Below the pieces are notes generated by a model that was given only the letters and a program-made list of their open reading frames with translations, was not told the origin of the DNA and searched no databases. Below are positions 7,011-33,205 of a DNA stretch of 36,788 nucleotides, in pieces. Position 1 is the first letter of the stretch, and the number at the start of each line of letters is the position of its first letter. The DNA comes from Planctomycetota bacterium (lineage in GTDB: Bacteria; Planctomycetota; MHYJ01; JACQRL01; SBBU01): assembly GCA_016206485.1 (NCBI GenBank), contig JACQRL010000098.1, positions 1-36,788 of the forward strand, given 5' to 3'. Made by a program: the position numbers and the translations under genes.

Positions 7011-7026
7011 TGGCATGGCATTTGCA
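7011..7026 (+). promoter_or_regulatory. Sigma-54 (-24/-12) promoter candidate
   Basis: TGGCAT-GGCAT-TTGCA has GG and GC exactly 12 nt apart, matching TGGCAC-N5-TTGCW. It lies 40 nt upstream of the ATG at 7066 (RBS GAGGTGA). Confidence 0.65.
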
Positions 7027-7065: not shown

Positions 7066-8928
7066 ATGTTAGGTTTAACTGAAGAAAAATCTTCAAGAGC
7101 GATAAAATTATTGCTCATCAATTTAACGGTTCTGTTTTTAGTATTCTCAGGACCGGCTTGTAAGTTTGGAGGGTCTTCAAGCAGCGGGTCTGACGATTCA
7201 TCGTCATCAGTTGCCCCTTCGGAGGGGGAGGTAACAGGTCAATTACTTGATGAAAATGGAAATCCGATAGCGGGAGCTACTGTTGTAATCGGAGCAAATT
7301 CTCCTTGCGATATATCTGACGACAACGGTAACTTTAGAATAAAAGATAGGGTTGTTAACGGTACACATCCATTTTATGTGGTAACAGATGGTTTTAGAAC
7401 TTTGGATGGCGCGGCAGTTGTCGTTAACGGGAATGTTTCCGTTGGAAAAGTTAAGATCGAAGGTATCAAGGATGTTGGGAATGCCCCTCACTTTAGCGAC
7501 TTTCTTGCGATTGTTGAAAACAACAAAGTAAAAGTCACAGCGACTATAGATAAAGGGGCTGATGAGCTCGTAGATATCAGGGCAGAAATGCTAAGCTACG
7601 GAGTCGGAGCTGTTCTGACTAAGCAGGGTGATGTATACAAAGGAGAATTCGATCTTCCGGCGGAAGCTGGTGGACCAAGGGCAATTATTATGGGTTTTGC
7701 CAGAGATGCGGACAACAGGATCTCAACTGCTGCTGATATAACCAATGAGTTTACCGGCGCAGGCGGATCATATGCGCTCCAGACTATTAATGGTACATAC
7801 TCTGGTTCGATTGGATTCCACCCAAGAGATAAAGACAGAGGCTTTGAACACAGAGGTAATGCCAAACTTGTTTTCAATAATGGTGATGCAACCGGTACAT
7901 ATGTTGAGCCGAATTATGCGCTACTGGTTAAGCATAATGGTAGTGTTGAACCATTTAAGCAGAAAACATCTTCAGATGGTAAGGTGCAGCTGATTGATGC
8001 GTTGAAGGGATTTTACAGGGTTGTTCTGTTTGACGGTGATGAAGATAGAAGAGTCAAGATGCTTGGAAAGCTGAATTCCGCAACAAATCCGACAGACTTC
8101 TATGGTCTTACAAGAGTATTTGATAAGTCTAAAAACAAATTCTATGGCGGACGTTTTCATCTTAAGAATAACGCCTCATTTGAATGGGGCATAGGTGATA
8201 TGGCGAAGGCATGGACGATATCAAACTTTTTGCCGGAAGATGAAGGTAATTCAAACTCAATAAGTGGTACATATAAACCTCCATTCCAGTACAACGTCGC
8301 AGTCAATGTAGAAGCAGGCGTAGTCTTGGCAGGTAACTGCACACTTGGAACAACTGTTCTGAGTGGCAGTTATATCGTGCTTGATTCTACACTTGGTAAG
8401 TATCAGGGAACTCTGACGATGTCTGATGGCGCAACATTTACCTATTGGTTCATAGTTGGTTTTAAAAAGATGGCAATGTTTGGAGTGAAGAAAATTGTCT
8501 CCGGCGCAATAACAGCGTATGGAATTAATTGGGGACATAAGAGAGAAGTAGGTCAGGATTGGTTTAAGACAGCGTATCTAAAAGGCTGGTTCTTCGGATA
8601 TTACAAGATTACTTCTGGACCAAACATCGGCAGCATAGGGCTTATGCATTTCAAGATGAATGAAAATGGAGAAGTTCTCACAGGAAAAGTCGGAACAATT
8701 ATTTCGAGTGTTACCGGTGGAAGTCTGAGTTTCACAGGTACAAATTCTACTTACACAGGACAGTTGGCAGGAACTCTGACGGGTAACAGCGCCACATTCA
8801 CAATCGCGCCGGCGAGTTCAAGAAATGCAAGTATGGGAGTATACTTGCAGAGATTGCTCGGTGATTTCTCTGACTCTTCAGGGAATAGCGGATACTTCTT
8901 TACACACAGGGTACATAAGAGCAATTAG
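7066..8928 (+). CDS. Large secreted protein (possible lipoprotein) with an N-terminal CarboxypepD_reg-like beta-sandwich; otherwise unknown
   Basis: Signal peptide 'LLLINLTVLFLVFSGPAC' followed by a Ser-rich linker. 'GQLLDENGNPIAGATVVIG...DDNGNFRI' is typical of carboxypeptidase-regulatory-like domains. The rest is G/T/S-rich and looks beta-rich. Confidence 0.8.
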   Translation: MLGLTEEKSSRAIKLLLINLTVLFLVFSGPACKFGGSSSSGSDDSSSSVAPSEGEVTGQLLDENGNPIAGATVVIGANSPCDISDDNGNFRIKDRVVNGTHPFYVVTDGFRTLDGAAVVVNGNVSVGKVKIEGIKDVGNAPHFSDFLAIVENNKVKVTATIDKGADELVDIRAEMLSYGVGAVLTKQGDVYKGEFDLPAEAGGPRAIIMGFARDADNRISTAADITNEFTGAGGSYALQTINGTYSGSIGFHPRDKDRGFEHRGNAKLVFNNGDATGTYVEPNYALLVKHNGSVEPFKQKTSSDGKVQLIDALKGFYRVVLFDGDEDRRVKMLGKLNSATNPTDFYGLTRVFDKSKNKFYGGRFHLKNNASFEWGIGDMAKAWTISNFLPEDEGNSNSISGTYKPPFQYNVAVNVEAGVVLAGNCTLGTTVLSGSYIVLDSTLGKYQGTLTMSDGATFTYWFIVGFKKMAMFGVKKIVSGAITAYGINWGHKREVGQDWFKTAYLKGWFFGYYKITSGPNIGSIGLMHFKMNENGEVLTGKVGTIISSVTGGSLSFTGTNSTYTGQLAGTLTGNSATFTIAPASSRNASMGVYLQRLLGDFSDSSGNSGYFFTHRVHKSN

Positions 8929-19203: not shown

Positions 19204-20817
19204 ATGGGACGGAAGAAGTTTAATATTGCCAGATTGTTACTGTTTTGTGGAGGAATACTTGGGTTCATCTTTATCGGATATGAAGTTTTGGAGCGTTATT
19301 GGCTTATCGATTTGTTGGAGATGACTAGCATACACCGGCTCCATTTAATCAGAGGTATTGGCGCGTCGCTGGTTGCGGTTGCTTTTATAATTATTTATCT
19401 CAGGAGATACAGCCAGTTTATTCTTCCTATCCCTAGAGCCGGGGAAATTGTCCATTTCTCCGATATTCCGACAGAAAATGACAGACTGAAGCATCACGCA
19501 AAATGGTTTATAAGGATGAGATGGATAGCTTCCGGGACAGCATTACTATTAATTGCCATAACAGTATTTTTGGAAGTCTTGCCCGCGGAAACGTTAATCC
19601 CGCTTCTTTGCTGTGCAGCATTACTTTTGTTTGCTAACGTTATCTACTCACGCATTTCCAGGGGAGTAAACAACGCATATAGTTTTATAATGGTTCAGGT
19701 TATAGTTGATCTTGTGATACTAGCAGGATTTGTTGAATTTTCAGGAGGACTGGAAAACCCTATTTATTTCATGTATTTATTGCACGTGGTTCTCGCAGGT
19801 ATACTGTTGAGGCAAAGAGATGCTTTTATCATAACCTTTTTTGCATTTGTGCTTGTATGTGTTGTTTCATTTGGCCAGTTGGTTCATATTTTCCCTCATC
19901 ATACCATAGCGATTTTCCCTCATGCAGGGGACAACCATGCGTCTTATAATCTGCCGTTTGTTCTGGGTAACATTTCTGTGTTTTTTATTATGATGTTTAT
20001 GACGGTTTATTTTGTTACGTTGGTTGTTGACCGGCTTAGGAAATCCAATGATCTTCTTATGCAAAGTATAGCCAATGCTCTCAGTGAGGTGGAAAAAAGA
20101 AAAGAGGTTGAGGCGCAACTGGTTCATTCCAGTAAACTCTCTGCTATTGGCAGGTTAGCGGGACAGGTAACACATGAAATCAATAATCCTGTGGGAATAA
20201 TAACCGCGAGGGCGAAGATGCTTGTAAATGATGCAGAAAAAGCAGGGACGAATGAAAAACAATTGAGTGATCTGAGAACAATATTGCGACACGCTGAGCG
20301 GGTAAGCGCTATTGCGAAAGGTCTGCTTTTTTATTCCAGACCTGCTGTTAAAACTACAGAAGCTGTTGATATTAATTATTTGGTGAAATCTGTAATGACT
20401 TTAATTGACCAGGAAAGTATTAAAGAAAAAAGGACATTAATAAGAACATTTTTTTGTAAAGAGAAACTAATGGCTAGTGCGGATTTCAATGACTTACAGC
20501 AGGCATTGCTAAATATTGTAAATAACGCGTTGGAAGCTATACAGAAGAATGGAATGGTGATAATCAGAGTCTTCAAGGATAAGGAATCTACCATAGGTAT
20601 TTCTGTGGAAGATACAGGTGTCGGAATATCAGAGAAAAACAGGGAAAAGTTATTTGAGCCGTTTTTTACGACAAAACCCCCGGGAAAAGGGACCGGCTTG
20701 GGTCTTGCCATCTGTTATGGCATAATTAGAAGTTATCATGGGGACATTAATGTAGAAAGTAGTGAGGGAAAAGGATCGAAATTCACAATTCTTTTACCCG
20801 GGAATACCGCGTTATGA
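19204..20817 (+). CDS. Sensor histidine kinase with a polytopic membrane sensor domain (RegB-like GGxxNP motif)
   Basis: The N-terminal ~290 aa are mostly TM helices. It has the H-box '[11 protein letters not shown]' and an HATPase_c domain ('NNALEA', 'DTGVGI', 'GTGLGLAI'). 'GGLENPI' is encoded at nt 19744-19764. Confidence 0.9.
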
Positions 20818-22211
20818 AGTCAATTCGCCTGCTTATTGTTGATGATGAAGGGGACATGCTGGATGTCTGCAGGGATATGCTTACAGATCTGCCTGATTTG
20901 AAGATCCAGATAGAATCTAATCCGGTAAAGGCAGCTGAGCGTCTCAGATCTAAATCTTTTGATCTTCTTATCACTGATTTGAAAATGCCCGGATTGAGTG
21001 GTTTGGAGCTTGTAAGAACGATGAATGAGATTGATCCGACTTTGCTCACTATATTTATTACTGCCTATCCCACAGAGGAAACTGCTGTTGATAGTATTAA
21101 ACTTGGAGTAGTCGATTATCTGGTGAAACCTTTCTCTCCTGAGCAGTTAAAAACGACAGTGAAAAGGGCTATGAATCGTAAGCTGCTGATGAAGGAAAAT
21201 CTTTTTCTAACCAGGCAAATAGAAAAAAGCTACAGGCTTGATGAACTTGTCGGGCAGAGTGCAGTAATGCAAAAAATTTACGATATAATCCAACTTACAG
21301 CGCCCACAGATGCTGATGTTCTTGTAACAGGGGAAAGTGGGACTGGCAAGGAGATGGTTGCAAGAAGTATTCATAAGAAAAGTAAGAGAGCTGATAAAAG
21401 ATTTGTTCCTGTGGACTGCGGAGCAATACCGGAAACTTTGTTTGAAAGTGAGCTCTTCGGGCATGAAAAGGGCTCATATACTGGTGCAGTATCATCCCAG
21501 GTAGGTTTGCTGGAATTCGCGGATGGTGGGACTATATTTCTGGATGAGGTTTGCGAATTACCTGTGTCAGTTCAGTCAAAACTGCTCCGTGCGATTCAGG
21601 AAAGATCTTTCAGACCGGTAGGTGCTACGGAAGAAGTAAGATCTGATATAAGAGTGGTCGCAGCTACAAATCGAGATATCGAAAAGGAGGTCAAGGATAA
21701 ACATTTTCGCGAGGATTTGTATTATAGAATAAATGTTGTTCGTATAGATATTCCGCCGCTTAGGGAGAGAGAAAAAGATATCGAGTTGTTTGCAAAGTAT
21801 TTTCTGACAAGATACTCGCAGGAGATGAACAAAGGTGTTCGTGAGATAGACAGTAGGGCTATGGAGATATTCAATTACTATTTTTGGCCGGGGAATATCA
21901 GGGAGCTCCAAAACGTCATCAAACGCGCTATTATCCTTACAAGGAATAATATCATCGGCATAAATGATCTGCCGGATTCTATAGTAAATTATATAAAAGA
22001 AGGGGACTCAACAGCAGACTCGATTGTTAATTTTTTTCAGTTAAGGGAGCAGTATATGGCTAAATTTGAACAGGAGTACCTGCTTAGACTTCTTACACAT
22101 TGCGATGGAGATGTGACCATGGCATCGAAAAAGTTAAAATTGCCCAGAGGAACATTGTATAGATTACTTAATAAACATAATATTGTCCCGGATGATATCA
22201 GGAATCAATAA
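20814..22211 (+). CDS. Sigma-54-dependent response regulator (NtrC family: REC + AAA+ + Fis-type HTH)
   Basis: ATGA overlap with the kinase gene. It has a receiver Asp in '[10 protein letters not shown]', Walker A 'GESGTGKE', the sigma-54 contact loop 'GSYTGA' (a GAFTGA variant) and the C-terminal HTH '[16 protein letters not shown]'. Confidence 0.95.
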
Positions 22212-22278
22212 CTAACAAAAATTATTTAACAAAATTATGATAAGGATTGTGTGAGACCGCTGAAAGAAAATAGAAATT

Positions 22279-22320
22279 AGGAGTCAGGAATAAGTAGATG
22301 GAATATAGAATTTGGAATAT
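22279..22320 (+). repeat. Degenerate heptanucleotide tandem repeat
   Basis: AGGAGTC AGGAATA AGTAGAT GGAATAT AGAATTT GGAATAT. Confidence 0.6.
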
Positions 22321-22432
22321 GGGTGCGGAGCTGCGTATGGCGATTTCGCGACAGATCATCCAATAGTTTGTTAAAGATAGGATAACAAGTTTATAAAAAG
22401 TCATCTGGCTTTGTGTTGTATTTTTGTGACAG

Positions 22433-22450
22433 TGTCATGATCGCGTGACA
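22433..22450. promoter_or_regulatory. Palindrome TGTCA-N8-TGACA, candidate enhancer-binding-protein site (UAS)
   Basis: TGTCATGATCGCGTGACA, with an additional TGACA half-site at 22427-22431. It is centred about 86 nt upstream of the -24 GG at 22527 and has the same architecture as 6946..6963. Confidence 0.45.
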
Positions 22451-22525
22451 GATAAAAGTTTTTAATCTTAAGAGCAGAATAAACAGGGCCAATTCAATAG
22501 TTTTAAAGGGTTACAGTATATTGTC

Positions 22526-22541
22526 TGGCATCTAAATTGCC
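22526..22541 (+). promoter_or_regulatory. Sigma-54 (-24/-12) promoter
   Basis: CTGGCAT-CTAAA-TTGCC has GG and GC 12 nt apart. It lies 34 nt upstream of the ATG at 22575 (RBS AAAGGAGG) and directly downstream of a sigma-54 activator gene. Confidence 0.7.
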
Positions 22542-22574
22542 CATGACAGAATAGAATTTAAAAGGAGGTTACTA

Positions 22575-23963
22575 ATGGCAAAAGTATGGAAGACATTATA
22601 TAGTCTGCCAATTTTATGCGTAAGTGGTGTATTGTTCTTTTTTGTTTTAACAAGTAAGAATGCTGAGGCGATACCTGCATGGGCGCGCAAGTATAAAACA
22701 AGTTGCGCTACCTGTCATGAATCGTTTCCAAAGCTCAATGCAACCGGTGAGGCATTTCGCTTGAATGGATATAAGTTTAATGATGATGACCAGGTTGTTA
22801 AGGAAGAAAAGGTTATACTGGGGCAGGATGCATACAAGAAAATGTGGCCTGATTCTATATGGCCTGCGGATATTTCAAGTGTTCCGCCGATTTCTATTCG
22901 CTTGCTTCCTGATTTTAACATACCGATTGGGGGAAAGAGAGGTCGCGAATCTGCGACAGATTTTAATTTCCCTCACGAAGCGGCAATTTTGGCTGCAGGG
23001 ACGATCGGAGCTGATATGTCATATTTCTTTGAGTTGGAATTTGAGGTTGAGGATGGCGAGACGTTAACCGAATTTGAGGCTGCTTGGTGGCAGTGGGAGG
23101 ATTTGGTCGGTCCTGAAAATGTATTCAATTTACGGCTTGGCACTATTGGAATGCAGGAATTTGGTCCTTTTACCGCAAGAGATCATAACCGCTTGACCAA
23201 GAACAAGTTTCTTTTCAGTGATACAATGCTTCCCTCTATCTCAGGAAAGGATACGTCGAACTATAAGGTTGGTATGATGCAACCGGGTATTGAGTTCAAT
23301 GGTTTCGGCGACCGCTGGAGATATGCTACTGGTATTGTTCGTGGTGTCAGCGATGGTGAAAATAATTCAGATAAAGACTACTTTTTACAGCTTGCATACA
23401 AAATAGGCGGATTGGGTTTTGACGGTTCCGGCAAATCAGATAAAGGTGCTGCGGCAAGCTCGAAGGATTTCATCAGAGATGATTCAATTATAATCTCTGC
23501 GTTTGGTTATCAGGGACTTGAAACCCTCGAAGATTCCAAAGGTGAAGGTGAAAATAGACTCTGGAGGGCAGGTCTAGGAGCATCCTGGAAAAAAGAAGAC
23601 CTGAGAATTGGTGGCGGCGTTATCTGGGGATCAGACAGCGAACCATACGGTACAGTAACTGATGAAACTGTGGATAGTCTAAACTATTATGTTGATGCAG
23701 AATACTTTGTTTATCCATGGCTTGTTCCGCTCCTAAGGTATGAGTCAATAAGTTTTGACCTGCCTGAAGGAGTGACCGGTTTACAGAAAGACCAGGACCG
23801 CGCTCGAGTCATTGCGGCTGTCAGGATTTTGGCAAGGGCTAATGTTGCGATATTGCTGGAAGGGCGTTTCCACACAAAGGATGAAAGATATACAGAGAAA
23901 ACACCGGATCAGGACAAGAACCAGGATGATTTAATAGCGATAAGACTTGATATCGCATTTTAA
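22575..23963 (+). CDS. Outer-membrane beta-barrel protein with an N-terminal monoheme c-type cytochrome motif (Cyc2-like fused cytochrome-porin)
   Basis: Signal peptide ending 'NAEA'. A single CxxCH ('CATCH', nt 22704-22718) lies about 12 residues into the mature protein. About 400 aa of alternating amphipathic strands follow, ending in the terminal 'RLDIAF' (a C-terminal Phe is typical of OMPs). Confidence 0.85.
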   Translation: MAKVWKTLYSLPILCVSGVLFFFVLTSKNAEAIPAWARKYKTSCATCHESFPKLNATGEAFRLNGYKFNDDDQVVKEEKVILGQDAYKKMWPDSIWPADISSVPPISIRLLPDFNIPIGGKRGRESATDFNFPHEAAILAAGTIGADMSYFFELEFEVEDGETLTEFEAAWWQWEDLVGPENVFNLRLGTIGMQEFGPFTARDHNRLTKNKFLFSDTMLPSISGKDTSNYKVGMMQPGIEFNGFGDRWRYATGIVRGVSDGENNSDKDYFLQLAYKIGGLGFDGSGKSDKGAAASSKDFIRDDSIIISAFGYQGLETLEDSKGEGENRLWRAGLGASWKKEDLRIGGGVIWGSDSEPYGTVTDETVDSLNYYVDAEYFVYPWLVPLLRYESISFDLPEGVTGLQKDQDRARVIAAVRILARANVAILLEGRFHTKDERYTEKTPDQDKNQDDLIAIRLDIAF

Positions 23964-24024
23964 CGTTGTGTGGATATTGTATTAGTGGACTTCTCATCCA
24001 ACCCTCCTATTGGAGGTTATGGAA

Positions 24025-24059
24025 CCAAGAGGGATTAAGCATCCCTCTTGGTATTTTTT
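24025..24059 (+). terminator. Rho-independent terminator (intra-cluster)
   Basis: Perfect 10-bp stem CCAAGAGGGA/TCCCTCTTGG with loop TTAAGCA and tail TATTTTTT. Confidence 0.8.
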
Positions 24060-24097
24060 GTTGATGTGAATGAAATTGTCGGTTCGGGAGGTGTTAT

Positions 24098-25243
24098 ATG
24101 AGAGTTGGCATGTTTTTTTTGATATGTCTTGTATCTTTGAATTTCACACTGTTGGAGGATGGCAAACTGACAGGGATAGTGAAATCCGCCGAAAAAGGTC
24201 AGCAATTTGTTGTTTATGTAATCAGTTCAGCAGGCGCTGAAAAGAATTCCGGACATGAAGTGTCTTTTAAACCGGCTGGAAAAACCATTATCGAGATTAA
24301 TAATGGAAAGTTAACACCTGACATTTCGACATTTCCACGGGGAACAGAAGTTGAGTTCAAAAATAATACCAGTGTAAAACATACTTTGCATGTCGCTACT
24401 ATCGTGGACCACAATGATATTGATGTGGAAGGCAATAAAAGCCGCTCTCTCTCATTCAGACTTCACGGTATTTATAATATCAGATGTAAGCTGCATGCGG
24501 AAGAAACTACAGATTTTGTGGTGACTGCGACACTACATTCAGCGATCACAGATAGTGATGGCAAATTCACTATATCTGGACTCCCCTCAGGTACTTTTAA
24601 AGTTAAGATCTGGAGCAAAGACTTAAAGGTATCCCAGCTTAATTCAACTTATGAAGTGAAAATAAATGCAGGCAAAGAATCTCAGATGGAAATTGTTCCC
24701 CCTTCGCCAGACACTTCAGGTACAGTAGCAGGAAAGGTTAATTCCTCCTTTGCGAAGAAGTTCCCGTTTGTGGTATATATTGAGGACATAGGATCTAAAA
24801 CTCTTCCTGTTCCTGATGAAAATGCATTGGTAGACCAATATGCGAAGGTTTTCGTTCCCAGAGTTTTACCTGTGCAGGTTGGTACGGCGGTTGACTTCCT
24901 TAACAGTGATCCTTTTGAGCATAATGTGCTGTCACCTGATGAGGAAAAGTATGACCTTGGTAATTTTGGAAAGGGTGAAAGCCGGAGCTACGTATTCAAA
25001 AGAACAGGATTTTATACCCAGTTGTGTACCCTTCATCCGGAGATGATAGCTTATGTTGTTGTTGTCAAGACTCCTTTTTTCGCGGTAACTGATAACGATG
25101 GCAATTTTAAAATTGAAGGCGTCCCTGCCGGCAGTTGGAAGGTAAAAATATGGAATGAAAGACTAAAAAGCAAACAGCTTGCAAAAACATGGGATATAAC
25201 TGTTGAAACGGATAAAGAGTCCGGTCTTGTAATTGAACCGTAA
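24098..25243 (+). CDS. Secreted protein with two tandem modules, each a cupredoxin-like domain plus a CarboxypepD_reg-like domain
   Basis: Module 2 has type-1 Cu ligands 'FEHNV' ... 'CTLHPEM' (C-x2-H-x2-M, amicyanin-like spacing). Module 1 has 'VKHTL' ... 'CKLHAEE' (Cys and His kept, no Met). Each is followed by a 'TDSDGKFTISGLPSGTFKVKIW' / 'TDNDGNFKIEGVPAGSWKVKIW' domain. Confidence 0.85.
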   Translation: MRVGMFFLICLVSLNFTLLEDGKLTGIVKSAEKGQQFVVYVISSAGAEKNSGHEVSFKPAGKTIIEINNGKLTPDISTFPRGTEVEFKNNTSVKHTLHVATIVDHNDIDVEGNKSRSLSFRLHGIYNIRCKLHAEETTDFVVTATLHSAITDSDGKFTISGLPSGTFKVKIWSKDLKVSQLNSTYEVKINAGKESQMEIVPPSPDTSGTVAGKVNSSFAKKFPFVVYIEDIGSKTLPVPDENALVDQYAKVFVPRVLPVQVGTAVDFLNSDPFEHNVLSPDEEKYDLGNFGKGESRSYVFKRTGFYTQLCTLHPEMIAYVVVVKTPFFAVTDNDGNFKIEGVPAGSWKVKIWNERLKSKQLAKTWDITVETDKESGLVIEP

Positions 25244-25247
25244 TGAG

Positions 25248-25871
25248 ATGAATGAAATACAACCGGACAAAGGTGCAAGAAATATAGTTCGTGTGTTTTT
25301 AGGTGTGGTCTTCTTCTTGCTTATTTTTTATTCTGCTTTGGGATACCAGTCATTGACTTGGAGCCCGATGTTTTACGTGAAAAACGCAGGTTCTGAAAGA
25401 TCACGGATTAATTTTGAGGGAGAAGAAAACGCTGTCCCGATGAAATATCAATCTGTGGAAAGAGGAAAAAAACTATTTCTCCGTGAAGGCTGTTCAGTCT
25501 GTCACGGGCAGGATGGCAGGGGAGGTGTAGCTAATCCTAATTACATCAATAAAACTACTCCGCGGTTAGATGAAATGGCTGAAAGACTTTTTCTCTATGA
25601 ACATGAGGATGTTGACTTAGTTTTAAAGGTTTTTGAATCAGGAAAATCTCTGGATGAGGTTGAGGATCTTGATATCCCGCGCGCAAACGCGGTGATTGCA
25701 CAGTACAAAAGTATTGTAACTTTGATACAGAGTGGAAATCCGGCTGGGAAAGAAGACCAGACAGGGCACTCCCCTTTTGATATGCCCGCCTTCAAGGGGA
25801 CTCTCAACCAGAGAGATGTTAATGATGTGATCGCTTACCTTTTGAGCATTTACAGGTGGGAGGGCAAATAA
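25248..25871 (+). CDS. Membrane-anchored monoheme class-I cytochrome c
   Basis: N-terminal TM helix 'IVRVFLGVVFFLLIFYSALGY', heme motif 'CSVCH' and a distal Met candidate in 'FDMPAF'. The start is either the ATG at 25248 or the tracked TTG at 25233. Confidence 0.85.
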   Translation: MNEIQPDKGARNIVRVFLGVVFFLLIFYSALGYQSLTWSPMFYVKNAGSERSRINFEGEENAVPMKYQSVERGKKLFLREGCSVCHGQDGRGGVANPNYINKTTPRLDEMAERLFLYEHEDVDLVLKVFESGKSLDEVEDLDIPRANAVIAQYKSIVTLIQSGNPAGKEDQTGHSPFDMPAFKGTLNQRDVNDVIAYLLSIYRWEGK

Positions 25872-25887
25872 TTTTAGTGGAGGCATA

Positions 25888-26775
25888 ATGGGAATTCATC
25901 CTTTTACAATAGTTCTTTTTGTTTTACTGTCGCTTGTCGGGGTTTTTCAAGGGATGCAAACACGTAATCCCATCTACATAGTTGTAGGTTTAGGTTTGGG
26001 ATTACTATTACTGTTGTCAGTACGCATAGCAAAACAGTGGCAGAAAGTAATGGTGCTCAGACTCGGAAAATTCAGTTCTTTGCAGGGACCGGGCGCATTC
26101 GGGGTTATTCCGTTTTTGGATACGATCCCGTCATTTGTCGATACGAGAATCATTACAACTCCGTTCACAGCAGAAAAAACCCTTACTAAAGACAGCGTTC
26201 CGGTTGATGTTGATGCAGTCCTTTTCTGGCGTGTTCTCGATCCGAAAAAGGCGGTGTTGGAGGTTGAGGACTATAAGAGCGCGATCTCATGGGCATCCCA
26301 AACAGCCTTGCGGGATGTCATTGGTGAAACCGACCTCTCTGAAATGCTTATAGGCCGGCGACAGATAGACTCGATATTGTGTAAATCAATTGATGAACGT
26401 ACGGAAGCGTGGGGTATCAAAGCCCTGTCTGTTGAGTTGCGAGATGTGAAAATTCCGACTGAGTTACAAAATGCGATGTCCATGCAGGCGCAGGCTGAGA
26501 GGGAACGACAGGCAAGGGTTATCTTGGCGGAATCTGAGAGACAAGTTGCCTTTAAATTTTATGAGTCTGCAAAGGCATATGAGAATAGCCCAGTAGCTCT
26601 GCATTTGAGGGCGATGAATATTTTATTGGAAGGAATGAGACAAAGTTCCACTATTATTGTTGTCCCTTCTACGGCTGTTGAAACCATGGGTTTGGGTGTA
26701 GTAGGCGGGATCACTTCACTTGCAAAAGAGTTCCAGGGTCCAAAGGAAAAGAAGGAGCAGACGAACTCACAGTGA
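25888..26775 (+). CDS. SPFH/band-7 (stomatin/prohibitin-like) membrane protein
   Basis: Two N-terminal hydrophobic helices followed by an SPFH core ('TKDSVPVDVDAVLFWRV', 'IKALSVELRDVKIP', coiled 'AQAERERQARVILAESE'). RBS GGAGG upstream. Confidence 0.9.
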   Translation: MGIHPFTIVLFVLLSLVGVFQGMQTRNPIYIVVGLGLGLLLLLSVRIAKQWQKVMVLRLGKFSSLQGPGAFGVIPFLDTIPSFVDTRIITTPFTAEKTLTKDSVPVDVDAVLFWRVLDPKKAVLEVEDYKSAISWASQTALRDVIGETDLSEMLIGRRQIDSILCKSIDERTEAWGIKALSVELRDVKIPTELQNAMSMQAQAERERQARVILAESERQVAFKFYESAKAYENSPVALHLRAMNILLEGMRQSSTIIVVPSTAVETMGLGVVGGITSLAKEFQGPKEKKEQTNSQ

Positions 26776-27293
26776 ACAGTGGAGTAATAGTTTTATCGAT
26801 AGGTTTTCTGACCTTTGGAGCGGCAATTATATATTATGCAGGAAGTAAACAGGATGAACTTGATTTCGCTGTTCAACCTGTGGAATACAATCATTCAAAG
26901 CACGTTGCTCTCGGGATAGATTGCAGTTCATGTCATACAGGGGCTACTGACGGGACTCATGCAGGTATTCCGTCCACATCAACATGCGCTTTGTGTCACA
27001 AAATTGACCGTGATTTTCCTTCTACTCCGCCTCAGCTCGCAAGATATATAAAGGGAGGAGAGGAAATTCCATGGATACAGCTGCATAAAGCGCCAAGGCA
27101 CATTTATTTTTCGCATCAGCGCCATGTGAAGCTCGGAAAACTGGATTGCGCTGTCTGTCATGGCGATGTGAAAACGATGGAGAAGCCTTTTGGAAAAAGT
27201 TATTTTCCTAGCGGCCTTACAGGTATGAATAAATGCGTTGCTTGCCATCTTAAAGAAAAAGTCACAACAGATTGTTTGAGTTGTCACAGATGA
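26772..27293 (+). CDS. Membrane-anchored pentaheme cytochrome c (ActA/QrcA-like)
   Basis: GTG start overlapping the previous stop (GTGA). It has an N-terminal TM helix and five CxxCH motifs (CSSCH, CALCH, CAVCH, CVACH, CLSCH) in 173 aa. Confidence 0.9.
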   Translation: MNSGVIVLSIGFLTFGAAIIYYAGSKQDELDFAVQPVEYNHSKHVALGIDCSSCHTGATDGTHAGIPSTSTCALCHKIDRDFPSTPPQLARYIKGGEEIPWIQLHKAPRHIYFSHQRHVKLGKLDCAVCHGDVKTMEKPFGKSYFPSGLTGMNKCVACHLKEKVTTDCLSCHR

Positions 27294-29254
27294 TCACAAG
27301 ACGTACATTTTTAAAGTTAGGAATTGGCGGCGGTTCAGGTATTGCTCTAATGAATGTATCTAAACTTGTTCCCGGAGGCATACAAACACTTGATATGATA
27401 GATGAACATACGATTCATCGCGACCTTCCGGAGCAATTATGTCTTTCAGTATGTAGCTCATGCAGTACCACCTGCAAGATTTTACTTCGTAATGTGGGAG
27501 GAAATATTGTTGGGGTCCGCCCCTTTAAAGATAAACCATGCGCAAGGGCATATACAACCCCTCAGGAGCTCTACCACCCTGACAGGGTGAAAGTTCCGTT
27601 GAAGCGTAGCGGTGGAAGAGGCGGTGGCATGTGGAATCAAATTGACAAAAATGGCGCAATAGCTGAGCTTGCGAACATTCTCCGAACATCTGGGGCAAAA
27701 ACTGTCTTTATTCTACGCGAGGATTCAGCCCTTTCATTTGGCCTTTTAAAGGCTGTTGGAGCTGCGGCAGGCTCGCCATACATTTTTACATATGATGTAC
27801 CTCTTGAACATGGTCCTGATGATGCGCTTGAACAATTAACAGGGTGGAGTTCGTGGAAAACAGATTTATTGAATGCTGATGGAGTTGTTTCATTTGGCTG
27901 GAACTGGCTGCAGAATTTTACGGATCTTGCAGGCGCGCAGAAGGCCTTTTCAAAATTTCGTGAAAAAGATTCTACGATGATTTATATTGGTCCAAGGCTA
28001 AATGTAACTGCTATGAAATCCCGCAAATGGATTGCATGTAAGCCCGGGTTCGAATCGCTGGTCGCGCTTGCTGTTTCATCAGTAATTTTGCGGGATGGCA
28101 AATATGATAAGTTAGCATGTGACAAGTCAGAAGGTTTTACTGACTTTGCAGCAAAGCTGCAAAATTTTGATCTGCAATGGTGTGAAAAAATATCCGGTGT
28201 GTCACCGAAGCAGGTGAAAAAGTTAGCAGATCTACTGGCAGATGCTCGGCCGATCTGTATATGCGACAGAGGTCGTCTTGTTGATCAGCAATCTGTAGTC
28301 ATGCTTAACGCGCTTCTTGGAAATATCGGGAGAGCAGGTGGTTTTGTGCAACTCCCGGATGTTACGCTTCCTTTTAAGAAGGAACCAAAAAAGGGGTTGT
28401 TCGCCAGTGACGTCCCGGATATTTTAAATAAGAAAGAGATTGAAACGGTTATTTTTGTCGGCGTGAATCCGCTGTTTACAGGACCTGATCCTTTGAAGTG
28501 GAGGGCCTCATTGAGCAACGCGAAAAATGTTGTAAGTATTACCTCTTTGATGAACGAGACGACCGGCTACGCTGATCTTGTGATCCCTCTTGCTTTGCCT
28601 GCTGAGAGAAAGGACATTTATTTTGAGATACAGGATAATAATGAAATTAAAACTTTAGTAGTTGAACCGGCAGTAAAACCGCAGCCTGAGATTTTATCAC
28701 CTGCGGAAATTACCTTCGAAATCTCTAATAAACTTGATGCTGAGGATTTTCCATGGAAGAAGCTGGAAGATGTTGTTGGTTCTCTGGTCGTCCGAAATCC
28801 TGATAAATTGGCATTGCGATTTAGCAGCGAGTGGAAATCTCCTGAATTTTCCAACGGGGAATTTCATCTTTTACTGGAACTTCCCGGGACATTTTCTCAT
28901 TTAGAAGGAGCTCATCTTCCATATTTATTGACGACTGTTGGTCCGCATTTGCGTAAGTGGTGGAGTACTTGGGTGGAAATGAATCCTTCTACAGCAGAAC
29001 GATTGGAACTACATAATAATGATACAGTGTTGGTTGAAAATATATCTGGTTCAATACAGGCGAAGGTTCGTATTTTTGAAGGTATTTCCCCTGATGCTGT
29101 TTGCATTCCGCTCGGTATGGGACACTCTATAGGTCATTTCGCGCAGAAAGAAGGAGGGAATCCATCAGAACTTATTGGATATATAAAGGATGAAAAATGC
29201 GGTGTCTCACAGTGGAATCTTCAAAAAGTTAATTTAAGGAAGGTTGCTGTATGA
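27290..29254 (+). CDS. Tat-exported molybdopterin-oxidoreductase-family subunit (QrcB/ActB1/PsrA-like)
   Basis: ATGA overlap with the upstream gene. It has the twin-arginine signal 'TRRTFLKLG' and an N-terminal Fe4S4-domain Cys pattern CSSC-STTC-(about 21 aa)-C. A MopB core is visible ('IGPRLNVTAMKSRKWIACKPG'), as is the C-terminal beta-barrel domain ('VEMNPSTAERLEL..DTVLVEN'). Confidence 0.9.
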   Translation: MITRRTFLKLGIGGGSGIALMNVSKLVPGGIQTLDMIDEHTIHRDLPEQLCLSVCSSCSTTCKILLRNVGGNIVGVRPFKDKPCARAYTTPQELYHPDRVKVPLKRSGGRGGGMWNQIDKNGAIAELANILRTSGAKTVFILREDSALSFGLLKAVGAAAGSPYIFTYDVPLEHGPDDALEQLTGWSSWKTDLLNADGVVSFGWNWLQNFTDLAGAQKAFSKFREKDSTMIYIGPRLNVTAMKSRKWIACKPGFESLVALAVSSVILRDGKYDKLACDKSEGFTDFAAKLQNFDLQWCEKISGVSPKQVKKLADLLADARPICICDRGRLVDQQSVVMLNALLGNIGRAGGFVQLPDVTLPFKKEPKKGLFASDVPDILNKKEIETVIFVGVNPLFTGPDPLKWRASLSNAKNVVSITSLMNETTGYADLVIPLALPAERKDIYFEIQDNNEIKTLVVEPAVKPQPEILSPAEITFEISNKLDAEDFPWKKLEDVVGSLVVRNPDKLALRFSSEWKSPEFSNGEFHLLLELPGTFSHLEGAHLPYLLTTVGPHLRKWWSTWVEMNPSTAERLELHNNDTVLVENISGSIQAKVRIFEGISPDAVCIPLGMGHSIGHFAQKEGGNPSELIGYIKDEKCGVSQWNLQKVNLRKVAV

Positions 29255-29931
29255 CACGCTTGGGAATGGTAATAGATTTAGATAAATGTTCGGCATGCCA
29301 GACTTGCGCTGTTGCCTGCAACACTGAGAACAATGCGCCTCCCGGTACTCCGCAGGAGGCAGAAGAGTCACGTCTTATGAGATGGCTTCAGTTTTTGCCT
29401 CATTTTGAAGGCGAATATCCGCACGTCTCCGGACAGCTCACTCCTATGATGTGTCAACAGTGTGAGAGACCTCCATGTACATATGTTTGTCCGGTTTCGG
29501 CTACCTATCCTACACCGGATGGAATCGTGGCGCAGATCTACTGGCGCTGTATCGGATGCCGATATTGTGTTAATTCATGCCCTTATACAATGAAGTGGTT
29601 CAACTGGTGGAAGCCGCAGTGGCCCGGAGAGCTGAAGAATGGGACAAATCCTGACGTTGAATTGAGAGACAAAGGAGTCACTGAAAAATGCACCTTTTGT
29701 CATACGAGGCTCCAACACGCAAAAGAAAAAGCTAAGGTCGAAGGCAGGGGAATTAGAACCGGGGAATATCTTCCGGCTTGTGCGGAGGCTTGTCCCACAA
29801 ATGCGATTGTTTTCGGAGATCTTGATGATCCTGAAAGCGAGGTCGCGCAACTTGCAAGGGATCCGAGGGCATATCGATATCTGGAAGAGCTTGGGACGAA
29901 ACCAAAGGTAATTTACCTGAAATCAAGATGA
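29251..29931 (+). CDS. 4Fe-4S ferredoxin-type electron-transfer subunit (PsrB/NrfC/QrcC/ActB2-like)
   Basis: ATGA overlap with the upstream gene. Four Cys clusters are present: 'CSACQTCAVAC', 'CQQCERPPCTYVCP', 'CIGCRYCVNSCP' and 'CTFC...CAEACP'. Confidence 0.93.
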   Translation: MTRLGMVIDLDKCSACQTCAVACNTENNAPPGTPQEAEESRLMRWLQFLPHFEGEYPHVSGQLTPMMCQQCERPPCTYVCPVSATYPTPDGIVAQIYWRCIGCRYCVNSCPYTMKWFNWWKPQWPGELKNGTNPDVELRDKGVTEKCTFCHTRLQHAKEKAKVEGRGIRTGEYLPACAEACPTNAIVFGDLDDPESEVAQLARDPRAYRYLEELGTKPKVIYLKSR

Positions 29932-31259
29932 GAGAAAATATAGAACAAAGTCTTCTGAGTTCTGTTTCCCGGAAGCCGGGACCGATTTACTTGGGTGTTT
30001 GCATTTTTCTCGGTCTGATATTATTAGGTTCTATTGCTGCATGGATCTGGCAGATTGTGTATGGGCTTGGTGTAACCGGGATGAATACCCCGGTTTTCTG
30101 GGGGCTTTATCTGGTTAATTTTGTTTTTTTTATAGGGATCTCTCACGCAGGTACGCTTATTTCATCGGTTCTTAGGATCACCGATACAAAGTGGAGAAGA
30201 CCTTTTACAAGGCTGGCAGAGGCGATTACGGTATTCAGTCTTCCATTCGGTGCCATGTGCGTTATTGTTGATCTCGGAAGACCTGACAGACTTTTAAACG
30301 TAATGTATTTCCCGCACTTTAGCTCTGCTATTCTCTGGGATGTCGTGTGCATCTCCACATATTTGATCACTTCAATTCTCTACTTTTATCTGGCCTTAGT
30401 TCCGGACATAGCTATATGCAGAGATGTTCTCAAAAATGTTTCACCCTGGAGAAGAAAACTTTACAGTGCGCTTTCATTGGGATGGAGCGGGACACAAAAG
30501 CAATGGAAGGTACTTAACAGGATCATGACAGGCATGTCAATATTCCTTTTTGCGCTTGTCGTTTCTGTACATACTAACGTTTCATTTGTCTTTGGTATGA
30601 CAACCAAACCGGGCTGGTCAAGCACAATTATAAGCCCGTTTTTCGTGCTCGGAGCTATTTACTGCGGTGTGGCAGCGATGATATTCTTCATGATTATTTT
30701 CAGAAAAATATTTCACCTCGAAATGTTTATAACGCAGAAGCACTTTAATTCTGCGGCAAAGTTTCTTCTTGCGCTTTGCTGCTTCTGGCTGTATGCGATG
30801 ATTATTGAGCATTTATTTGGGTTTTATCACGGAGAAGAAAGTGAGTATCACCTGTTTATGGATAAAATGTTCGGCCACTACGCCATCTCTTTCTGGGTCA
30901 TGTTTGCGTGTTGCTTCCCTATTCCTTTTGTTGTACTTGCCGTGCCTCGGTTCAGGACGATTACAAATTTATTTATTATTTGTATAGTGGTGAACATCGG
31001 TATGTGGATGGAACGTTTTACTATTATCGTTCCAAGCGGAACACATCCTCTTTTGGCATGGGGAACAGGCAGTTATTCTCCAAGCTGGGTAGAATGGTCT
31101 ATTACTGCCGGATGGATTTCGGGGTTTGCGCTGTTTATTATGATATTTGTTCGTTTATTTCCCATGGTGACTATTTGGGAGATAAAAGAGGAAATAGAGG
31201 AAACTATGCATAAAAAAGATACTGTTACTGCAAAAGAAGGAGTAGGCATACTGGAATAA
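29928..31259 (+). CDS. NrfD/PsrC-family integral membrane quinone-interacting subunit (QrcD/ActC-like size)
   Basis: ATGA overlap with the upstream gene. 443 aa with about 10 hydrophobic helices, and NrfD-type motifs near the N-terminus ('PVFWGLYLVNFVFFIGISHAGTLIS'). Confidence 0.9.
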   Translation: MRENIEQSLLSSVSRKPGPIYLGVCIFLGLILLGSIAAWIWQIVYGLGVTGMNTPVFWGLYLVNFVFFIGISHAGTLISSVLRITDTKWRRPFTRLAEAITVFSLPFGAMCVIVDLGRPDRLLNVMYFPHFSSAILWDVVCISTYLITSILYFYLALVPDIAICRDVLKNVSPWRRKLYSALSLGWSGTQKQWKVLNRIMTGMSIFLFALVVSVHTNVSFVFGMTTKPGWSSTIISPFFVLGAIYCGVAAMIFFMIIFRKIFHLEMFITQKHFNSAAKFLLALCCFWLYAMIIEHLFGFYHGEESEYHLFMDKMFGHYAISFWVMFACCFPIPFVVLAVPRFRTITNLFIICIVVNIGMWMERFTIIVPSGTHPLLAWGTGSYSPSWVEWSITAGWISGFALFIMIFVRLFPMVTIWEIKEEIEETMHKKDTVTAKEGVGILE

Positions 31260-31918
31260 TGAGACTAATATATTTGTCTTGGCTTGCTTTCGTTGCTGGC
31301 TGCGCATGTCCGTTTTCTGTTGAACATGCTGCCGAATCCAAAGCTCGTTCAAATAATGCTGATGAAGTTTCTATGAGTGAAACTGATCCATCAAAGAAGC
31401 AACAAAAATTGGATCCGCTTACGCATGGTCAAAAAATACCGGATGCGAGTCTTGTAAATCAGAGTGGAAAGAATATCAGACTGTCTGATTACAGAGGAAA
31501 CGTCCTCATATTAACGTTTATATATACTCGATGTAATATACAAACGATGTGCCCGTTGGTAACGTCGAAGCTTGCGGGTGTCCAGAATAAAATCGCTAAG
31601 AATAATGTAAACTCTGTGCGGTTTCTTGTAGTAAGTTTTGACTCTATGTACGACAAGCCTGATAAACTCAAAGAATTTGCACAGCGGTATAACATTAACC
31701 TGGCGGTTTTTGAATTTGCCGGCGGTGAGCCTGAAACGGTCGGGAATCTTGCCCGCTCGTTCAATATCTACTATCGCAATGACTGCCCCGGAGTTTTCAC
31801 GCATAATATAATTGTTTCAATTGTTGATAAAAAAGGTGTTTTGCGCGATGATTTTTTTGGGACGGAGTGGGATGATGAAGAAATGGTCTCAGTTATAAAA
31901 CAATTAGCTGTTGAATAA
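31259..31918 (+). CDS. SCO1/SenC-family thioredoxin-fold copper chaperone, lipoprotein
   Basis: TAATG overlap with the upstream gene. It has the lipobox 'FVAGC', 'LILTFIYTRCNIQTMCP' (Cys pair) and the downstream conserved His in 'VFTHNIIVSIVD'. Confidence 0.85.
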   Translation: MRLIYLSWLAFVAGCACPFSVEHAAESKARSNNADEVSMSETDPSKKQQKLDPLTHGQKIPDASLVNQSGKNIRLSDYRGNVLILTFIYTRCNIQTMCPLVTSKLAGVQNKIAKNNVNSVRFLVVSFDSMYDKPDKLKEFAQRYNINLAVFEFAGGEPETVGNLARSFNIYYRNDCPGVFTHNIIVSIVDKKGVLRDDFFGTEWDDEEMVSVIKQLAVE

Positions 31919-31924
31919 CAGCGC

Positions 31925-33205
31925 TTAATGCACTGTTCTTATGATTATCCAGGATTTTTTTCCCGGCTCTATATTGATTTGTCTGGTTTCATATCCGACA
32001 GAAGAGTTGTTATTATCCTGATAATGCAATTCCACGCTGTATTGCCCCTTGGGTAGTTTGATCCGGGACATCTGGAGATCTGCAGGGAATGTGTAAACTC
32101 CTCTGGTGTCGGCTTTTTCTGATAAGTAAGCGAGGGTCTTAAGTATTCCACCGACTATTTTCCCTGCTTCTTTGTCCTTTTTCTCGATTTCCTTTGCAAT
32201 CAGATCCGCTGTTACCATTTTAACTCCAAGAGCTACGGCTCTTTTGGCGAGGAGTCCGACAAATCTTTCATCAAGAGTAGAAACCATATTATTTTCGATA
32301 TCATCGAGAAGCTCAGTGAATGCGATTATGTTTCCGGCCCTGATTTTGATTCGTCTGATTCCAGCGTGCCTTTTTTGGTATTTTGGAACGATGACAAGAT
32401 CCGGGTGAGGCACTTTTTCCGGAGCAAGTCCGCTTTCAAGTATGACTATAAGTTCTCCGGAGTCTGCCGGAGCCGGAGAAAACTTCGCATTAAATGTTTT
32501 TTCCCACTGCTGAAGCTCATCTTTCCAGTTCAAAAGATGGCATATTCGCATCAATCCTTCTTTTGCGCGCGGATCATACTGGTCAAGGTTATAAAGTCTT
32601 TTGTAATCGATGAGCGCCTCATTATATTCACCGAGCTCCTCATAGATCATGGCGGACAAAAGTATTGAAAATTTGCTTTGTTTGTAATCGATTCCTCTCT
32701 GCTGGATCACATAGTTGAGTGTCTGGTCTATCTGTTTGCATTCAATCCTTGCTTCATCCATTTGATTTAATCCGATGTAATTAAGCGCCAGGAAGGCGTG
32801 AACCAGTATTCTCTCGTAGTCTTCACCTCTGTAATCTTCTAAATTCTCATTTGTGATGAATTTTCCAACCTCGTAATCCCAGTGGATCAGATCATATTTT
32901 CTGACGATCTCCGCTGCTTCCAGCAGATAATCATTGCTTCTTTTGTATTCACCGGCGCTGTGAAGAATAATTCCTCTGTCCATGCAATATATAATTTTGT
33001 CCCTTCCCTCAGTTTTCTTGTCATATGGCTCGATCATAGCTGCGGCGCCGGCAAAATCTCCCCTGAAGAACATCTTGTTAATCGTCTTGTTCTGGCTGGA
33101 AAGGGATGAGCAACTTATTGTCAGTAGACAGAAAACAGGAATCAGAAAACAGAATATAGAATATGGAATATGGAATAAAGAATGGTAAGTGTAAGGTTGT
33201 TTCAT
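31925..33205 (-). CDS. Lipoprotein with TPR-like helical repeats, unknown function
   Basis: Lipobox 'LLTISC' and helical-repeat segments (e.g. 'GEYNEALIDYKRLYNLD'). The first ~25 codons are encoded by heptamer-repeat DNA, so the start is less certain. It converges on the SCO gene with a 6-nt gap. Confidence 0.75.
   Translation of the reverse strand: MKQPYTYHSLFHIPYSIFCFLIPVFCLLTISCSSLSSQNKTINKMFFRGDFAGAAAMIEPYDKKTEGRDKIIYCMDRGIILHSAGEYKRSNDYLLEAAEIVRKYDLIHWDYEVGKFITNENLEDYRGEDYERILVHAFLALNYIGLNQMDEARIECKQIDQTLNYVIQQRGIDYKQSKFSILLSAMIYEELGEYNEALIDYKRLYNLDQYDPRAKEGLMRICHLLNWKDELQQWEKTFNAKFSPAPADSGELIVILESGLAPEKVPHPDLVIVPKYQKRHAGIRRIKIRAGNIIAFTELLDDIENNMVSTLDERFVGLLAKRAVALGVKMVTADLIAKEIEKKDKEAGKIVGGILKTLAYLSEKADTRGVYTFPADLQMSRIKLPKGQYSVELHYQDNNNSSVGYETRQINIEPGKKSWIIIRTVH
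33129..33184 (+). repeat. Heptanucleotide tandem repeat overlapping the first codons of the lipoprotein gene 31925..33205
   Basis: CAGAAAA CAGGAAT CAGAAAA CAGAATA TAGAATA TGGAATA TGGAATA AAGAATG. Confidence 0.75.

Follow-up and report, generated by a model that had tools for sequence, protein, structure and literature searches.

The gene at positions 22575..23963 (+) of contig JACQRL010000098.1 (assembly GCA_016206485.1, Planctomycetota bacterium), whose 36,788 nucleotides (nt) are referred to here as the window, encodes a predicted one-heme outer-membrane porin. Its membership of the known Cyc2 family is supported by the Cyc2 sequence signature, a modelled barrel, homology to Burkholderiaceae-type proteins and a link to a genome already reported to harbour cyc2. 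Family membership of this kind is already known; what is new here is the near-universal pairing of this Cyc2 subfamily with a type-1 copper/CarboxypepD_reg protein, found in 77 of the best 80 loci out of at least 571 species-level genomes with relatives. As judged from gene content, the porin-cytochrome and the copper protein are the conserved core of the system, and they are frequently accompanied by a sigma-54 two-component system and by some quinone-linked respiratory complex.

A first-pass annotation of the window, made from the letters alone, had described this gene as a Cyc2-like fusion of a monoheme cytochrome with an outer-membrane porin. The open reading frame (ORF) was intact and exactly as described, with an ATG start and 462 amino acids (aa), and all of the quoted peptides (...SKNAEA followed by IPAWARKYKTSCATCHESFPKLN, the segments DYFLQLAYKIGG, LWRAGLGASWKKEDLRIGGGVIWGS and ARVIAAVRILARANVAILLEGRF, and the terminal IAIRLDIAF) were found in the translation. 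Only one CxxCH motif (C44-H48) was present, within the segment IPAWARKYKTSCATCHESFPKLN that comes after AEA, as had been stated. The protein has three Cys in total, the third of which (C15) lies inside the signal peptide, so that the mature protein would indeed keep the heme pair as its sole Cys pair. Cleavage of the signal peptide was again predicted, from a hydrophobic N-terminus, an AEA site followed by IP and a helix at residues 2–29 in the structural model. The C-terminal aromatic residue to which the annotation had drawn attention, at the end of ...RLDIAF, is F462, and it was invariant in an alignment of 36 homologs with 35–61 % identity to the window protein. The strand-like region of the barrel was present as claimed, but its size is ~356 residues (106–461) and not the ~400 residues proposed. 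It is preceded by a conserved linker of ~35 residues, which had not been singled out.

The same 36-homolog alignment was used for an AlphaFold2 run on the 462-aa protein. In the resulting model (predicted TM-score, pTM, 0.77), a transmembrane barrel was predicted, with 16 beta-strands between residues 106 and 461. When the barrel was compared with the PDB by Foldseek, the top structural matches were 16-strand general porins (PorB, OmpU, OmpF, OmpC and Omp32), with E values of 1e-12 to 1e-10 (~1e-12 for the best), 9–15 % identity and TM-scores of 0.57–0.66 normalised to the target. General porins such as OmpF, OmpC, PorB and OmpU have the same barrel fold and strand number as the window protein, but differ from it in sequence, at those identities, and have no N-terminal cytochrome domain. 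The porins named for Cyc2 by Keffer et al. are OprO and OprP (PMC8406198). The Cyc2-like architecture of the first-pass annotation was supported by this 16-strand barrel, by the published signature with one F-to-W change, and by homology of the heme domain to Cyc2-type proteins.

According to Keffer et al. (2021; PMC8406198), a Cyc2 has a signal peptide, a single CXXCH with the family-specific motif AXPXFAR[Q/K][T/Y] upstream of it and PXL four residues downstream, a 16-strand porin and a length of >365 aa. In the window protein, A-I-P-A-W-A-R-K-Y is followed by KTS, CATCH, ESF and P-K-L; the Cyc2 elements are all in place and correctly spaced, apart from W in the position of F. The PxL element corresponds to H48-E-S-F-P52-K-L54; P52 was invariant in the 36-homolog alignment, and PxL was observed in 69 of the 77 relatives with a complete motif. 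With its 462 aa and its 16-strand barrel, the protein also has the length (at least 365 aa) and the porin after the cytochrome domain that are expected of a Cyc2.

Homology to Cyc2-type proteins was observed at several levels. In a tblastn search of plasmid records, the N-terminal region was matched on replicons of Ralstonia, Caballeronia, Paraburkholderia and Methylocystis, with E values (at database scale) of 1e-4 to 5e-2 for nine of ten such matches and 0.4 for the weakest. The genes found there encode proteins of 446–552 aa that start with ...A[VL]PAFARQTGxACxACHVSFPELTPFGRFFKMTGY and end in Phe; they are assigned to Cyc2 from motif, architecture and genus, not from experiment. Ralstonia and Burkholderia are Cyc2-rich genera (PMC8406198). 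At the comparison loci, genes for c-type cytochromes follow and, in Caballeronia, a HiPIP gene lies upstream, which are classic Cyc2 neighbours. In a pairwise BLASTP of the window protein against the Ralstonia megaplasmid protein, 40 % identity was obtained over 48 ungapped residues (E 2e-10; the blastp cut-off in the pipeline of the Cyc2 authors is E <= 1e-5), and AIPAWARKY of the window aligned without gaps to AVPAFARQT of Ralstonia. Comparison of the family with a Burkholderiaceae-type profile of 3 sequences only, by hhalign, gave 98.4 % probability and E 1e-14 over 113 columns, covering the heme domain through the first two barrel strands. About 25 linker residues (consensus KEEPVELGDEAYKKLWPxAIWPSDIPG) were absent from the Burkholderiaceae-type proteins in this comparison.

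In one of the 80 loci (L011, contig JAZFSN010000107.1), the product of the Cyc2-like gene has 40 % identity to the window protein over residues 14–462. This contig is part of JAZFSN01, a reference genome that according to a 2026 paper also harbours cyc2; the related Cyc2 described in that paper, from Thermodesulfovibrionia, is of the Cluster 3 type and has 16 strands (PMC13647500). Cyc2 falls in three clusters (McAllister, 2020; Keffer, 2021), and the window protein probably belongs to the Cyt572-type 'Cluster 3'. Cyc2 homologs in Ignavibacteriaceae, Bacteroidetes and Verrucomicrobia were reported in 2019 (PMC6344600).

The family is large. An exhaustive profile search recovered 355, 1,410 and 3,698 representative clusters (50 % identity) at E <=1e-30, 1e-10 and 1e-3, respectively, and a word-indexed search recovered 321 homolog clusters, every one labelled hypothetical. 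A profile search of the PDB sequences found no relative, the sole match being a cytochrome c at E 1.1. The best 80 loci come from Planctomycetota, Desulfobacterota, Acidobacteriota, Gemmatimonadota, Ignavibacteriota, Bacteroidota, Nitrospirota, Nitrospinota, Omnitrophota, Methylomirabilota, Calditrichota and others. Together with the window protein they gave 81 sequences, all of which have C44, C47 and H48; these three residues and F462 were invariant in 36 of the 36 aligned homologs, and exactly one CxxCH was present in each of the 77 sequences with a complete motif. The block IPAFARKYxTSCxTCHxxFPRLNxxGEAFRLNGY around the CxxCH was the best-conserved stretch of the protein, and R38, Y40, T42, C44, T46, C47, H48, P52, G58, R62 and G65 were the invariant residues of the heme domain in the 36-homolog alignment. 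Conservation of this degree shows that the motif does not occur by chance. In the linker, residues G83, K88, P92, W96, P97 and P105 were conserved in at least 77 of the 81 sequences. The sixth heme ligand of the family does not appear to be conventional, and the conserved candidates among the 81 members are Lys39/76/88/267/276 and Tyr40.

In each of the 77 loci, the gene for the copper-protein partner follows immediately after the Cyc2-like gene and has its orientation. Of the three exceptions, two lie on contigs that break off within ~360 nt of the Cyc2-like gene; the third (L075) has ~1.3 kb of sequence beyond it, and this encodes a CarboxypepD_reg protein without detected cupredoxin similarity. 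The pairing was confirmed independently by adjacent NCBI locus tags (A2Z34_03530/03535 and VNM22_18415/18420), and an unbiased clustering of all neighbouring ORFs of the 80 loci recovered the same gene pair together with the regulators. Most of the partner homologs have 210–250 aa and are labelled plastocyanin by JGI; in the window partner, a unit found once in most relatives is duplicated in tandem (residues ~25–200 versus ~201–381).

The partner matched the cupredoxin, Copper-bind, amicyanin and CarboxypepD_reg models of Pfam and NCBIfam. In the partner alignment, a His, the Cys and a second His were invariant and the Met was conserved in at least 90 %, with an amicyanin-like C-x2-H-x2-M loop. 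The closest PDB sequences were those of amicyanins, with an E value of 5e-12, besides type-1 copper domains that occur as fusions to nitrite reductases. An AlphaFold2 model of the partner (predicted local distance difference test, pLDDT, 88.5) has four beta-sandwich domains, and its Foldseek matches were multi-cupredoxin copper enzymes. By ligand set and fold, the partner would be classed as a type-1 (blue) copper cupredoxin, for which copper binding is predicted. Unit 2 of the window partner reads CTLHPEM and unit 1 reads CKLHAEE, with Glu at the axial Met position, which probably gives the two copper sites different potentials or occupancies. A cytochrome-porin paired with a type-1 copper/CarboxypepD_reg protein was not found reported in the searchable literature outside the Acidithiobacillus rus operon; the papers found on such systems discuss only Acidithiobacillus/Acidihalobacter-type rus systems and Tenderia. 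On the contig of the closest relative (L084 117-4452, Logan ERR15087780), two Cyc2-like paralogs of 461 and 468 aa, with 59 % and 61 % identity to the window protein, flank a 404-aa CarboxypepD_reg-type gene, which indicates that the cassette can be duplicated.

A terminator-like hairpin was located between the Cyc2-like gene and the partner gene, at 24024..24062 (+), with a GC-rich 12-bp stem, a 5-nt loop and then the T-tract ATTTTTTGTT. It was the strongest terminator-like site in 22150-32100 and was present in both the minimum free energy and the centroid folds, with a z-score of -2.7. This suggests partial termination, with the porin transcript in excess of those of the downstream genes. 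The features of the locus are collected in Table 1.

Table 1. Predicted features of the Cyc2-like locus, in positions of the window
Feature	Coordinates	Strand	Basis
Sensor histidine kinase, membrane-embedded sensor	19204..20817	+	HisKA + HATPase_c; ~7 transmembrane (TM)-like segments in residues 1-266
Sigma-54-dependent response regulator (receiver + AAA+ activator + Fis-type helix-turn-helix)	20814..22211	+	Sigma54_activat E 3e-70, Response_reg, HTH_8
Candidate activator-binding site, GTGACAG repeated 19 nt apart; first copy in palindrome TGACAgTGTCA (22427-22437)	22426..22451	+	Read from the sequence
Sigma-54 (-24/-12) promoter-like site, TGGCAT-CTAAA-TTGCC	22526..22541	+	GG/GC spacing correct; 34-49 nt before ATG
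Cyc2-like protein: signal peptide, aa 1-32, predicted cleavage between AEA and IP	22575..22670	+	Helix 2-29 in model; AxA site ahead of conserved IPAFARKY
Cyc2-like protein: monoheme cytochrome c domain, aa 33-70, signature AIPAWARKY-KTS-CATCH-ESF-PKL	22671..22784	+	CxxCH at 22704-22718
Cyc2-like protein: conserved linker, aa 71-105, between heme domain and barrel	22785..22889	+	Conserved alignment columns
Cyc2-like protein: 16-strand outer-membrane beta-barrel, aa 106-462, ends in Phe, plus stop codon	22890..23963	+	Model + Foldseek
Conserved partner, secreted, two tandem units, each type-1 copper cupredoxin + CarboxypepD_reg beta-sandwich	24098..25243	+	381 aa; Pfam/NCBIfam
Membrane-anchored monoheme cytochrome c, 212 aa	25233..25871	+	Cytochrom_C E 1e-10; one CxxCH at residue 87; one N-terminal TM-like segment
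SPFH/Band 7 membrane protein	25888..26775	+	Band_7 E 5e-35
Qrc/ACIII-type quinone-interacting complex, four genes	26772..31259	+	Pfam + NCBIfam
Complex: pentaheme cytochrome	26772-27293	+	Best NCBIfam match QrcA; five CxxCH
Complex: Tat-signal molybdopterin-family subunit	27272-29254	+	Best match QrcB, 229 vs cutoff 440; RR motif
Complex: 4Fe-4S subunit	29251-29931	+	Best match QrcC, 265 vs cutoff 400
Complex: NrfD-type membrane subunit	29928-31259	+	Best match DsrP, 100 bits; also QrcD, 37 bits
SCO1/SenC copper chaperone	31259..31918	+	SCO1-SenC E 2e-17

The two regulatory genes upstream of the Cyc2-like gene were also recurrent. Residues 100–520 of the kinase align to the RegB/PrrB/ActS redox-sensing kinase model with 94.8 bits, below the cutoff of 350, and its cluster was found in 39 of the 80 loci, mostly upstream of the Cyc2-like gene at a median offset of ~-4 kb. 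A homolog of the regulator lies <=3 kb upstream of the Cyc2-like gene in ~34 loci. The intergenic gap ahead of the Cyc2-like gene is 363 nt long, and within it the candidate GTGACAG site lies ~90–100 nt upstream of the sigma-54 promoter-like site, which is followed by a ribosome-binding site, AGGAGG, at 22563-22568. A relaxed sigma-54 motif was detected in 7 of the 32 loci with an adjacent activator and in 1 of the 48 without one (background, 2 % of 200-nt windows), and a strict motif in 6 of 80 loci against a background of 0.4 %, with start codons placed only approximately in this screen. The adjacent sigma-54 two-component system probably switches on expression, and the combination of a RegB-like kinase with a sigma-54 activator suggests a redox-responsive induction. 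Elsewhere in the window, a second and better sigma-54-type site, TGGCATGGCATTTGCA, with one mismatch to the consensus, was located at 7011-7026, 40 nt upstream of an ORF (7066-8928) that encodes a 620-aa protein with a CarboxypepD_reg domain and no other family match.

The neighbourhoods were further compared by searching the window proteins against all ORFs of the 80 related loci. Downstream, a homolog of the membrane-anchored cytochrome c was found in 14 loci. By ORF clustering, the other downstream neighbours were Rieske proteins (16 loci), cytochrome b (20), a 674-aa multi-domain cytochrome c (23), small cytochromes c (19), COX2/CuA-like proteins (10–11) and a flavin/FeS oxidoreductase (18). 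Additionally, 15 of the 80 loci have, ~2.8 kb further on from the Cyc2-like gene in the downstream direction, a gene for a polytopic, Cys-rich membrane protein of 491 aa that matched no Pfam family (L002 13119-14591) and adjoins a small CuA-like cupredoxin (L002 12588-13097). The Band 7 protein had no homolog in any of the loci and represents local context only, and the SCO1 gene was shared by only one of them (L005). This locus, from a groundwater Planctomycetota metagenome-assembled genome, has the whole operon order in common with the window, at 32–72 % identity.

The gene order and domain set of the four-gene complex fit a Qrc/ACIII-type assignment, with all of the NCBIfam scores well below the curated cutoffs. 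With its TTG start at 25233, the cytochrome c gene of the window begins inside the copper-protein gene, whose last 11 nt it shares, and several of the later genes overlap or abut at 26772/26775, 27272/27293, 29251/29254, 29928/29931 and 31259. Translational coupling all the way from the copper protein to SCO1 would agree with this arrangement. As regards the host, the window PriA (3806-5980) had no relative above ~44 % identity among 5.8 billion proteins, and its named matches came from mixed phyla; by this sequence measure, the host lineage is poorly sampled.

Taken as a whole, the best explanation, and one that we consider likely, is a Cyc2-family one-heme porin with dissolved Fe2+ as its most likely donor, from which the electron would go to the copper partner, to cytochrome c and to an oxidase or the Qrc/ACIII complex. 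We infer heme attachment and position, substrate, direction of electron flow and regulation as follows. After removal of the signal peptide, C44/C47 would carry one heme c, whose proximal ligand would be H48, ~12–16 residues from the mature N-terminus, and the remaining chain would fold as a 16-strand porin. The heme domain, on its conserved linker of ~35 residues, would sit at or in the periplasmic mouth of the barrel and mediate electron transfer across the outer membrane, as the first-pass annotation had also supposed. An extracellular redox substrate small enough for the pore, most likely dissolved Fe2+, would reduce the heme, which would in turn reduce the type-1 copper protein encoded immediately downstream, in the role that rusticyanin has for Acidithiobacillus Cyc2. 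From the copper protein the electron would pass to the membrane-anchored cytochrome c, and then either to the Qrc/ACIII-type quinone complex of the same gene row or to a terminal oxidase whose genes lie elsewhere. The neighbouring sigma-54 two-component system, with a kinase similar to membrane redox sensors, would induce expression, and the strong hairpin after the porin gene would make the porin transcript more abundant than the rest.

These steps parallel the established Cyc2 model, in which Fe2+ enters the pore and reduces the single heme, and the electron is passed to a periplasmic carrier (PMC8406198). In Acidithiobacillus, the blue copper protein rusticyanin acts as this carrier, with Cyc1 and the oxidase as the next steps, and the heme His of the modelled Cyc2 is residue 16. 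After cleavage at residue 32, H48 of the window protein would likewise be mature residue 16. The near-obligatory blue-copper neighbour fits a rusticyanin-like role as carrier. Type-1 copper proteins generally have high midpoint potentials, and the copper partner, the cytochrome c and the respiratory complexes would together favour a respiratory chain with inward flow from Fe2+.

Several observations weigh against this explanation. W36 stands in place of F, so that 6 of the 7 specified positions of AXPXFAR[Q/K][T/Y] fit and a literal pattern screen would reject the window protein; F occupies this position in 74 of 77 relatives, and the strict pattern was found in 45 of the 81 sequences. The scans of the window protein gave no Pfam match and only a weak NCBIfam match, TIGR01904 (E 0.085). 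The pairwise and profile comparisons found no barrel homology to Cyc2 beyond the first two strands, which is normal for Cyc2, whose clusters have just 17–22 % identity to each other (PMC8406198 identity tables). The heme domain (residues 27–52) and the linker (71–104) were modelled at pLDDT <50, as expected with the heme missing from the model, so that the model does not place the heme with respect to the barrel. Neither a conserved Met nor a second conserved His was found as distal heme ligand in the 81 family members. As a core partner, the Qrc/ACIII complex was rejected, since it is next to the Cyc2-like gene in only 3–4 of the 80 loci (L005, L044, L077). A universally conserved sigma-54 promoter was also rejected; the motif is enriched but far from universal, being detectable only in a minority of loci. 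Moreover, many family members come from anaerobic or Fe(III)-reduction-linked lineages (Desulfobacterota, Ignavibacteriota, Thermodesulfovibrionia), and with such carriers iron oxidation is not guaranteed. Finally, complexes of the ACIII and bc types, which recur beside the gene pair, normally move electrons from quinol to periplasmic carriers, and the A. ferrooxidans chain has been described as reversible.

The last of these observations would favour a conduit of the same Cyc2 type that is not an iron oxidase, with outward flow to chelated Fe(III), Mn(IV) or humic quinones, or with another soluble donor. Electrons would then run from quinol through the Qrc/ACIII or bc complex, cytochrome c and the copper protein to the porin heme and an extracellular acceptor. 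The presence of family members in anaerobes and in lineages known for Fe(III) or humic-substance reduction would be explained in this way, and among the organisms with Cyc2 homologs there are many that are not known iron oxidisers (PMC7029218). Fe2+ oxidation is, however, the activity of all three Cyc2-type proteins that have been characterised, and the generally high potential of type-1 copper fits a downhill chain from Fe2+ to an oxidase better than the reduction of ferric minerals; a single heme behind a narrow pore also reaches only small soluble species (PMC8406198). We regard this alternative as unlikely.

A non-respiratory job for the heme porin seems to us quite improbable. It might be a redox-gated or redox-sensing solute entry, the acquisition of copper or iron with the partner as a metallochaperone, or a detoxification at the surface. 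Respiratory complexes and cytochromes c, not transporters, recur next to it, and its partner keeps the complete ligand set of an electron-transfer type-1 copper site, not a chaperone motif. CarboxypepD_reg domains are, on the other hand, common on outer-membrane transport proteins, and the absence of a conserved distal ligand could mean an open coordination site; the SCO1 copper chaperone of the window points the same way, but is common to only one related locus. We give hardly any credence to an ordinary heme-free porin with a CxxCH by chance. No cytochrome family model scored above threshold, as would be expected of such a protein, but the CxxCH with ~20 surrounding residues is the most conserved part in 81 of 81 relatives from more than 10 phyla, and this region is homologous to Cyc2 heme domains. 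With the CxxCH invariant among them, the homologs are not heme-free porins, and the predicted fold is a transmembrane barrel; heme-free best homologs or another fold would, by the first-pass annotation, have spoken against its reading.

As a Cyc2-family protein, the window protein can be compared with known electron-transfer systems. Features in common with the Cyc2 fused cytochrome-porins (A. ferrooxidans Cyc2, M. ferrooxydans PV-1 Cyc2 and Leptospirillum Cyt572) are the signal peptide, the one CXXCH close to the mature N-terminus, the spacing of A-x-P-x-[F]-A-R-[QK]-[TY] and PxL, a length of >365 aa, the 16-strand porin and a neighbouring gene for a periplasmic electron carrier. It differs from them in the W for F and in the conserved insert of ~25 residues after the heme domain, and a sigma-54 regulator is often adjacent in its family. 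The Burkholderiaceae-type loci have Cyc1-type cytochromes c, whereas the partner in the window family is the type-1 copper/CarboxypepD_reg protein instead.

The electron chain of the Acidithiobacillus rus operon (Cyc2, the cupredoxins rusticyanin/AcoP, Cyc1 and an aa3 oxidase) likewise has Cyc2 encoded with one or more cupredoxins and a cytochrome c. The likeness would extend to a handover from heme to blue copper in the periplasm. By contrast with the rus operon, the window partner is amicyanin/plastocyanin-like, fused to CarboxypepD_reg, tandem-duplicated and encoded directly after cyc2, and no oxidase genes are present in the window row, which has the Qrc/ACIII-type complex instead. MtrCAB, MtoAB and PioAB also combine an outer-membrane barrel with c-type heme for electron transfer across the outer membrane. 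Each of these consists of several proteins, with a 26-strand barrel and decaheme wires able to reach solids, whereas the window system has one polypeptide, 16 strands and one heme (PMC8406198).

We hold it as a tentative possibility, not far from evenly balanced, that this multi-phylum Cyc2 branch is a distinct two-component outer-membrane/periplasm module, with an obligate copper partner and often sigma-54 redox control, that plugs into bc-type or Qrc/ACIII-type complexes. By analogy with MtrA in MtrB, the beta-sandwich of the partner may dock at the mouth of the barrel in such a module. If true, this would provide a marker pair and a candidate periplasmic acceptor for many non-proteobacterial 'Cyc2-like' genes whose function has been guessed.

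Cyc2 is the main genetic marker used for inferring microbial iron oxidation in metagenomes, and most of its homologs come from beyond the few tested organisms and have an uncertain function. The window adds a Cyc2-family member from a poorly sampled lineage. By the comparison made from it, several hundred species of more than ten phyla would have such a cytochrome-porin beside a blue-copper protein, often together with a sigma-54 regulator and a quinone-linked complex. Its pairing with the copper protein gives a concrete electron path to test, from the porin heme to the copper protein, the cytochrome c and the membrane complex, and the two-gene signature could make the annotation of iron cycling more specific than the porin alone.

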